A DNA stretch of 32,000 nucleotides, taken from positions 1,260,001-1,292,000 of the forward strand of contig NZ_LN831039.1 of assembly GCF_001457595.1 (NCBI RefSeq). Direction: 5' to 3'. The position numbers were made by a program, and so were the translations under genes. The notes below the pieces were generated by a model, which was not told where the DNA came from, searched no databases, and saw only the letters and a program-made list of their open reading frames with translations. Position 1 is the stretch's first letter, and the number at the start of each line of letters is the position of its first letter. This DNA comes from Mycolicibacterium smegmatis. Lineage in GTDB: Bacteria; Actinomycetota; Actinomycetes; Mycobacteriales; Mycobacteriaceae. Shown in pieces: positions 24,919 to 25,062 of the stretch.

Positions 24919-25062
24919 GCTTGGTGATGTGAGCCGGACGTCGATCGGTTACCACTTCTAATGGAATGGTCGCGGGTTCGAATCCCGCCCGCCCTACGCA
25001 GGGCGGTAGCTCAGCTGGCAGAGCATTCCCGGTTGATACCTCACACGCCCACATCACCGAGC
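24919..25062 (+). ncRNA. yrlA: Y-RNA-like ncRNA with a circularly permuted tRNA-like module (YrlA type)
   Basis: A 13-bp terminal stem (24919-24931 / 25050-25062). T-arm GCGGG-TTCGAAT-CCCGC (24972-24988). Acceptor-like helix CCGCCC/GGGCGG closed by TACGCA (24989-25006). D-arm GCTC-AGCTGGCA-GAGC (25009-25024). It is co-oriented with rsr and lies ~130 nt upstream of it. The ends are approximate. Confidence 0.8.

Follow-up and report, generated by a model that had tools for sequence, protein, structure and literature searches.

YrlA, a circularly permuted tRNA-like Y RNA upstream of rsr in Mycobacterium smegmatis, recovered from genomic sequence

The 32,000-nt stretch of Mycolicibacterium smegmatis DNA analyzed here (contig NZ_LN831039.1, positions 1,260,001 to 1,292,000, referred to below as the window) carries a ~144-nt element on the + strand at positions 24919-25062, between a gene encoding an M23 peptidase and rsr, which encodes the orthologue of Ro60. 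Reading the letters alone, an initial annotation had proposed that this element is a YrlA-type Y RNA, tRNA-like but circularly permuted, and a ligand of Rsr. We identify it, with a probability of about 96%, as yrlA of Mycobacterium smegmatis, the opening gene of a + strand yrlA-yrlB-rsr unit. It is the same RNA that was described and biochemically tested in the same species and at the same locus by Chen, Sim, Wurtmann, Feke, and Wolin (RNA 20:1715, PMC4201824; hereafter Chen et al., 2014), and because of this earlier work the element adds nothing as a discovery; the proposal is a correct rediscovery. The element does lie between the peptidase gene and rsr, as had been stated, but the description had passed over a second RNA, YrlB, that is located in the same interval.

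We searched the window for the oligonucleotides printed for M. smegmatis YrlA, YrlB, and rsr in Chen et al. (2014). All five match exactly, at one site each and in the expected order and orientation: the antisense Northern probes YrlA-5' (24949-24971) and YrlA-3' (25036-25062), the YrlB probe (25100-25124), and the forward (25226-25247) and reverse (26902-26920) cloning primers for rsr (MSMEI_1162). A scan of the genome collection with Rsr yielded no locus from M. smegmatis itself; the closest other species in it is M. wolinskyi, whose Rsr is 85% identical. Given the five exact matches and this distance to the nearest other Rsr, the window is the M. smegmatis rsr locus with the published YrlA. 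Strictly, the source is M. smegmatis or a strain that agrees with it at the five oligonucleotide sites (116 nt) and has an identical Rsr protein; the likeness further includes the site upstream of rsr, the length of ~147 nt, the 7-bp acceptor stem, and the downstream YrlB, and no difference is detectable in the sequence compared at the five sites.

The downstream gene (25226-26920, MSMEI_1162 / MSMEG_1193) was identified as rsr because its product contains a TROVE domain (Pfam, 3.6e-61) and a Ro60-type von Willebrand factor A domain (vWA_Ro60, 5.1e-62), and the two cloning primers fall at its two ends. It follows YrlA on the same strand, in agreement with the initial annotation, and its start at 25226 lies within the about-4-kb criterion of Chen et al. 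(2014) when measured from the end of the YrlA core at 25062.

For the M. smegmatis YrlA sequence, published experiments have shown that the RNA is expressed, binds Rsr, is cleaved by RNase P, receives CCA, and is co-processed with YrlB (Chen et al., 2014). Immunoprecipitation of Flag-Rsr retrieved an RNA of ~147 nt along with its two halves (82 and 65 nt), which were prominent, and these discrete species co-purified with Rsr that was supplied in trans from a plasmid. The 65-nt half starts at the exact RNase P position for a tRNA, the 82-nt half bears an added CA that completes a CCA tail, and E. coli M1 RNA cuts the M. smegmatis YrlA transcript in vitro at the RNase P site. In the same study, a 7-bp acceptor stem was found only in the M. 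smegmatis RNA, and the role of the tRNA-like module was considered unknown by the authors (Chen et al., 2014). A literature search for later functional studies of the mycobacterial Rsr or Y RNA returned only reviews and two interactome mentions of MSMEG_1193.

The permuted order of tRNA-like arms can be read directly from positions 24972-25024, as a T-arm (GGUUCGAnUCC), a closed acceptor-like stem-loop, UA, and a D-arm (GCUCA...GG.AGAGC). The T-arm, GCGGG-TTCGAAT-CCCGC (24972-24988), is also recovered by Rfam, by minimum free energy (MFE) folding, and by the RNAalifold consensus, and the D-arm, GCTC-AGCTGGCA-GAGC (25009-25024, preceded by TA at 25007-25008), by Rfam and MFE folding. Between them, the acceptor-like hairpin (24989-25006) consists of 7 bp, CCGCCCT/AGGGCGG, closed by the loop ACGC in both the MFE fold and the RNAalifold consensus. 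The tRNA-like module is enclosed by a 13-bp terminal stem with one G-U pair, formed by GCTTGGTGATGTG (24919-24931) and CACATCACCGAGC (25050-25062) and also picked up as an inverted repeat (I1), and by a 9-bp inner helix (24940-24948 with 25029-25037), both present in the MFE fold and the RNAalifold consensus. The inner part of this enclosing stem comprises the presumed Rsr-binding module, with GCCGGACGTCGATCGGTTA (24933-24951, direct repeat D1) as its 5' strand and CCGGTTGATACCTCACACGC (25029-25048, direct repeat D2) as its 3' strand. The + strand of YrlA folds with an MFE of -69.4 kcal/mol (z = -4.9), and none of 200 shuffled sequences folds equally well. The terminal stem, the T-arm, the D-arm, and a short helix in the place of an anticodon stem had all been placed correctly by the initial annotation. 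The acceptor-like hairpin had likewise been given its proper position, but with 6 bp and a TACGCA loop, where the fold and the consensus give 7 bp and ACGC, and the literature likewise has 7 bp.

The structure is maintained across Actinobacteria. With Rsr as query we collected 80 actinobacterial rsr loci, each with flanks of 1500 nt. The yrlA-yrlB-rsr arrangement can be aligned between the window and ten Mycolicibacterium/Mycobacterium relatives, and for these 11 YrlA sequences RNAalifold independently recovers both the terminal and the inner stem, together with a small CCA/TGG hairpin and the three arms (T, acceptor, and D). A covariance model built from the alignment of 11 Mycolicibacterium loci (referred to as R1) produced 152 matches at E <= 0.01 in the 80 rsr loci and the window, all but one of them on the strand of rsr, and in most of the 80 loci it detects YrlA upstream of rsr. 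Its only matches within the window are YrlA (24919-25062, 156.5 bits) and YrlB (25069-25190, 54.8 bits).

The 63 strongest R1 matches were then used as an alignment (A4) for covariation analysis. Standard base pairs occupy 96.0% of the paired cells in A4, and sliding the 3' partners over 1-3 columns lowers this share to 37.6-48.0%; double-sided changes occur in 29 of the 43 pairs (455 cells), and none of 500 shuffles attains any of the covariation measures. The terminal stem shows compensatory changes in 10 of its 13 pairs (93.4% of cells paired) and the inner stem in 7 of 11 (95.7%), that is, in 17 of 24 pairs over the two helices together. Double changes are also present in 3/3 pairs of the CCA/TGG hairpin, in 3/5 pairs of the T stem (99.7% of cells paired), and in 6/7 pairs of the acceptor stem. 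The D stem is identical in all 63 homologues and, being invariant, is conserved yet uninformative for covariation. Compensatory changes in orthologous loci, which the initial annotation had named as a check on its stems, are therefore found in these 63 sequences.

Two short helices next to the T-arm compete for G24963 and G24964. One is the CCA/TGG hairpin (24952-24964, CCA-CTTCTAA-TGG with a 7-nt loop), which belongs to the RNAalifold consensus; it is the counterpart of what Chen et al. (2014) drew as the V stem-loop, and we refer to it as the V hairpin. The other is the anticodon-stem-like helix, in which GGAAT (24963-24967) pairs with ATTCC (25025-25029). It is absent from both the MFE fold and the RNAalifold consensus, and the Rfam alignment contains it as four pairs, GAAU/AUUC. 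Because it falls outside the two predicted folds and competes with the V hairpin, we tested it sequence by sequence in the 63 homologues. At the position of tRNA 27-31/39-43, the mean run was 3.22 consecutive base pairs, as compared with 1.80 +/- 0.13 (maximum 2.16) in 500 partner swaps, and the pairs covary (ATTCC/GGAAT, TCTT/GAGA, ATGA/TCAT, TGAGG/CCTTA, and TTTGGG/CCCAAG). The anticodon-stem-like helix is thus real but short, with 2-6 bp. In most relatives the loop of the V hairpin has the sequence C-U-N-N-N-R-A, which recalls an anticodon loop (U33, purine 37); this likeness may be a trace of tRNA origin, or a coincidence.

Folding energy alone cannot settle the strand of YrlA, because the - strand folds almost as well (-66.7 kcal/mol, z -3.9). 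However, there are conserved G-U pairs that would become mismatches if the RNA were read from the opposite strand; one of them, a U-G at alignment columns 31:159 (C-A on the other side), occurs in 61 of the 63 sequences. The conserved G-U pairs, the Rfam match on the + strand only (see below), and the published probes, which are antisense to the + strand, place YrlA on the + strand.

From the published fragment sizes, we infer that full-length YrlA extends from 24918 to 25064 on the + strand, so that the 24919-25062 of the initial annotation is the base-paired core and is 1-2 nt short at each end. In this fit, RNase P would cut between 24999 and 25000, i.e., 5' of A25000, and the 65-nt 3' half would correspond to 25000-25064. 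The 5' half would comprise 24918-24997 (80 nt) and reach 82 nt with the added CA; its terminus would read ...CCGCCCU-A-C, with A24996, C24997, and the added CA giving ACCA. The fitted total of 147 nt agrees with the published sizes to the nucleotide, and the prerequisites for cleavage by RNase P and for adding CCA are present in the sequence, namely the 7-bp stem, A24996 as the discriminator, and C24997.

Across the 63 homologues (A4 columns 83-118), the length of the acceptor-like stem varies from 4 to 9 bp or more, and UUCG or CUCG tetraloops are frequent. A 7-bp stem whose loop has AC as its first two bases is found only in the window (loop ACGC) and in three close relatives, namely M. wolinskyi (ACAU), Mycobacterium sp. 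852013 (ACUA), and M. chubuense (ACCAC). The loop of M. chubuense (locus L005) contains a genome-encoded ACCA that RNase P cleavage would expose.

Routine searches do not report the element. Rfam at gathering thresholds gave no match in the whole 32-kb window, and ARAGORN predicted no tRNA or tmRNA there. When Rfam was searched permissively, which includes the YrlA model that the initial annotation had suggested running, the best match was the YrlA family (RF02553) at 24964-25028, on the + strand only, with 45.1 bits and an E-value of 5.3e-9 and with the four core helices aligned; the YrlA core is therefore matched, below gathering. Other weak Rfam matches (nematode ceN72-3 on YrlB at E 0.01, plastid untranslated region families on the antisense of the T-arm, and tRNA-Sec) were rejected as chance or partial similarity, since none comes near its gathering score and the T-arm and the stem account for them. 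Because both gathering-threshold Rfam and the tRNA finders are silent at this locus, the current Rfam model appears to under-serve the actinobacterial YrlA branch. In most of the actinobacterial loci examined, R1, a model seeded with actinobacterial sequences, retrieves YrlA and YrlB-like elements upstream of rsr, where tandem series of them are frequent. In this case, a genuine non-coding RNA that had escaped routine annotation was found by reading the raw sequence.

Several points weigh against the identification or against parts of it. The window YrlA, with 45.1 bits, does not attain the RF02553 gathering score of 69 bits, and the alignment covers only model positions 23-85 of 114. This partial coverage accounts for the low score, and it arises because the sequence of the enclosing stem is too unlike the Rfam model, such that only the core aligns; the gathering score is a curation threshold and not a biological property, and the founding paper of the family includes M. 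smegmatis YrlA. The exact motif GNCGAAN0-1G, a proposed Rsr contact, has no match in 24919-24960, the nearest sequence being GTCGATCG at 24940-24947 with one mismatch. In the M. smegmatis RNA, Chen et al. (2014) marked "conserved nucleotides within" this motif, so that a partial match is implied, and, following them, the conserved inner module would be the Rsr contact site. As A4 was fitted to R1, its percentage of paired cells is inflated, but the control by sliding and the count of distinct pair types stay convincing despite the model-fitted alignment. A scan for consensus promoters, including sigma-70, and terminators between 24600 and 25400 found nothing. Finally, any biological role of the RNA in mycobacteria, such as PNPase tethering or a function in the stress response, is hypothetical at this stage.

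We considered whether the segment could instead be coding, as an N-terminal extension of the - strand M23 peptidase. Mechanical extension of the peptidase open reading frame (ORF) gives an uninterrupted frame of 485 aa (23609-25066) that crosses YrlA and holds the peptide GRAGFEPATIP, and YrlA indeed lay inside the then-annotated N terminus of the neighboring gene MSMEI_1161 (Chen et al., 2014). The initial annotation had warned that ORF-based annotation would miss the element or mis-extend the peptidase gene, and this older annotation, which ran over YrlA, is an instance of it. It had also described the antisense ORF, which exists, as the only one over the segment, but two mechanical + strand ORFs, 24961-25332 and 24966-25358, cross it as well. 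Spurious long ORFs are common in this G+C-rich DNA, with 68 ORFs of at least 40 aa in 7 kb. The changes between species are paired stem substitutions and loop indels rather than codon-periodic ones, an internal Met near 24811 opens a signal peptide typical of lipoproteins (MAAMTRRLRALPALLIFVVTAC), and in other assemblies the gene called at the identical locus (397-418 aa) ends at or before 24865 and so leaves YrlA uncovered. The substitution pattern and the gene calls lead us to reject the antisense ORF as a coding sequence, and we regard the chance of a protein-coding origin as practically negligible. A decayed tRNA gene, or a remnant of tandem tRNAs in which the T-arm would belong to one copy and the D-arm to the following one, without a function of its own, is also very improbable. 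The Rfam tRNA model does align end to end with 24923-24996, using the V hairpin as the anticodon arm (21.6 bits, E 0.04), Chen et al. (2014) warned that dimeric tRNAs can imitate a YrlA match, and, by our reasoning, a tandem tRNA duplication would naturally yield the permuted order. However, this score is below the gathering value of 29, ARAGORN finds 0 tRNA genes in the window, the non-tRNA parts (terminal stem and Rsr module) retain compensatory changes across the 63 loci and sit upstream of rsr in every case, as tests of covariation outside the core and of synteny showed, and the element is bound by Rsr in vivo (Chen et al., 2014). A tRNA origin may nevertheless be part of its history, which is compatible with a present function.

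A further explanation is that the element acts mainly in cis as a leader of the rsr mRNA, either as an autoregulatory Rsr-binding or as a tRNA-sensing 5' untranslated region, and not as a free-standing RNA. YrlA, YrlB, and rsr are on one strand with short gaps and no terminator-like site between them, one conserved promoter-like element precedes YrlA, and YrlA and YrlB derive from a single precursor (Chen et al., 2014). On the other hand, discrete RNAs of ~147, 82, and 65 nt co-purify with plasmid-expressed Rsr (Chen et al., 2014), and homologous YrlA RNAs act in trans in Salmonella. We therefore consider a mainly cis-acting leader quite improbable; a leader role could coexist with the role in trans but cannot replace it.

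With YrlA taken as an Rsr-bound Y RNA, our best account of the mechanism, in line with the literature, is as follows. YrlA and YrlB are transcribed as one precursor, and processing of this precursor yields the ~147-nt YrlA. The two ends of YrlA pair as a long stem, and the conserved inner part of this stem, common to YrlB, would dock onto the ring-shaped Rsr. The distal part adopts a circularly permuted tRNA fold, with the T-arm, the closed 7-bp acceptor stem, the D-arm, and the short helix that replaces the anticodon stem. In M. smegmatis, RNase P recognizes the 7-bp acceptor stem and opens its loop, after which the new 3' end is trimmed and gains a CA to form an ACCA tail, and the 82-nt and 65-nt halves stay paired and remain on Rsr. 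By analogy with Yrn1 of D. radiodurans and YrlA of S. Typhimurium, the tRNA-like module is most likely the effector-binding and nuclease-resistant end, through which Rsr would be tethered to an exoribonuclease (PNPase/GpsI) and the access of other RNAs to the Rsr ring would be gated. In a pull-down of RNase E, MSMEG_1193, the TROVE protein of the window, was enriched together with GpsI/PNPase, which is compatible with PNPase tethering in mycobacteria.

The opened, CCA-tailed YrlA could also be imagined as a split tRNA-like acceptor on Rsr in M. smegmatis and its nearest relatives, being aminoacylated or engaging EF-Tu, ribosomes, or a tRNA-dependent enzyme. We consider this a long shot. The recurrent 7-bp stem and AC loop, corresponding to a discriminator A followed by C74, in four of the closest sequences might be read as a weak hint, and most other Actinobacteria carry UUCG-type tetraloops on acceptor-like stems of 4-9 bp. 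To our knowledge, no aminoacylation of YrlA has been reported. The possibility of aminoacylation was raised by Chen et al. (2014).

Among the closest known systems, YrlA of Salmonella Typhimurium (RF02553; crystal structure PDB 6CU1, Wang et al., 2018, bioRxiv 10.1101/312249) has the same architecture of an Rsr-binding stem and permuted tRNA-like T, closed acceptor, and D arms with an equivalent of the anticodon stem. The Salmonella acceptor stem, of 6 bp, is left uncut by RNase P, whereas that of M. smegmatis YrlA has 7 bp and is cut. The gene order also differs, as the Salmonella operon is rsr-yrlBA-rtcBA under RtcR and the M. smegmatis RNAs precede rsr; the rtcBA/RtcR contrast is taken from Chen et al. 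(2014) only, no search for rtcB having been made in the window. Yrn1/RYPER of D. radiodurans is likewise encoded upstream of rsr on the same strand, binds Rsr via its terminal stem, contains a T-arm-like hairpin, and tethers Rsr to PNPase. It differs in that its arms are ordered otherwise, a clear D-arm is lacking, and the helix that binds Ro is nearer to the metazoan type, and it was regarded as independently evolved by Chen et al. (2014). tmRNA and the tRNA-like structure of turnip yellow mosaic virus share with YrlA the L-shaped tRNA-like fold with its T-loop/D-loop elbow; unlike them, YrlA has no anticodon loop, its acceptor end is closed until cleavage, and it is attached to a Ro60-binding stem.

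YrlB (about 25075-25184, + strand), which is identified by the exact probe match, R1, and its fold, is the second Rsr-bound RNA that Chen et al. (2014) described between YrlA and rsr as having a possible T-arm and sharing the precursor of YrlA. Its terminal stem is GGCCGCG/CGCGGCC, and it has a T-arm-like hairpin, AAGG-TTCGACT-CCTT (25112-25126), and no D-arm; an additional hairpin at 25131-25155 is missing in four relatives. It shares with YrlA a 19-nt block at 100% (25083-25101) and a 20-nt block at 90% (25157-25176). YrlB folds with z = -4.9, and its consensus fold over 11 species includes 6 pairs with double changes. The gaps in the unit are about 10-12 nt between YrlA and YrlB and about 41 nt between YrlB and rsr.

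The window holds two such elements, and in several Actinobacteria (Arachnia, Mycobacterium sp. D16R18, and metagenome-assembled genomes) R1 detects four Y-RNA-like elements arranged head to tail upstream of rsr (L072:849-1454, L074:839-1454, L017:962-1477, L035:554-1171, and L034:974-1466), which is a lower bound given flanks of only 1500 nt. Multiple YrlA-like copies per locus have been reported before (Chen et al., 2014).

The true start of rsr is almost certainly the GTG at 25226 and not the ATG at 25193, which results from mechanical ORF extension (25193-25225), because AAAGGAG lies 7 nt upstream of the GTG, the ATG of the orthologues aligns with it, and the published clone starts there. 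Upstream of YrlA, two + strand blocks are conserved in otherwise divergent intergenic DNA of 11 Mycolicibacterium loci. The first, a AATAATCAGT-like box (GATAAATCGGTAG in the window, 24872-24884), precedes the inferred 5' end by about 35-46 nt. The second is a putative -10 element resembling mycobacterial ones, CGTAGCGT (24904-24911, TAnnGT), 7 nt before that end, where CGTAnnGT is invariant in the 11 loci and the flanks are variable. These blocks are possibly a promoter and a regulator site. Since the scan for consensus promoters found nothing, this proposal draws on cross-species conservation alone.

On the - strand, the M23 peptidase gene extends over 23609-24811 (Pfam Peptidase_M23, 1.6e-17) when its start is placed at the internal Met mentioned above, and, judging from the predicted signal peptide there, its product is probably a lipoprotein. 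Further upstream is a gene for a Ser/Thr protein kinase (21395-23290). Downstream of rsr, the neighbors encode a proline-rich DUF7159/DUF7157 protein (27579-28790, + strand) and an SNF2-family helicase (28859-30850, - strand).

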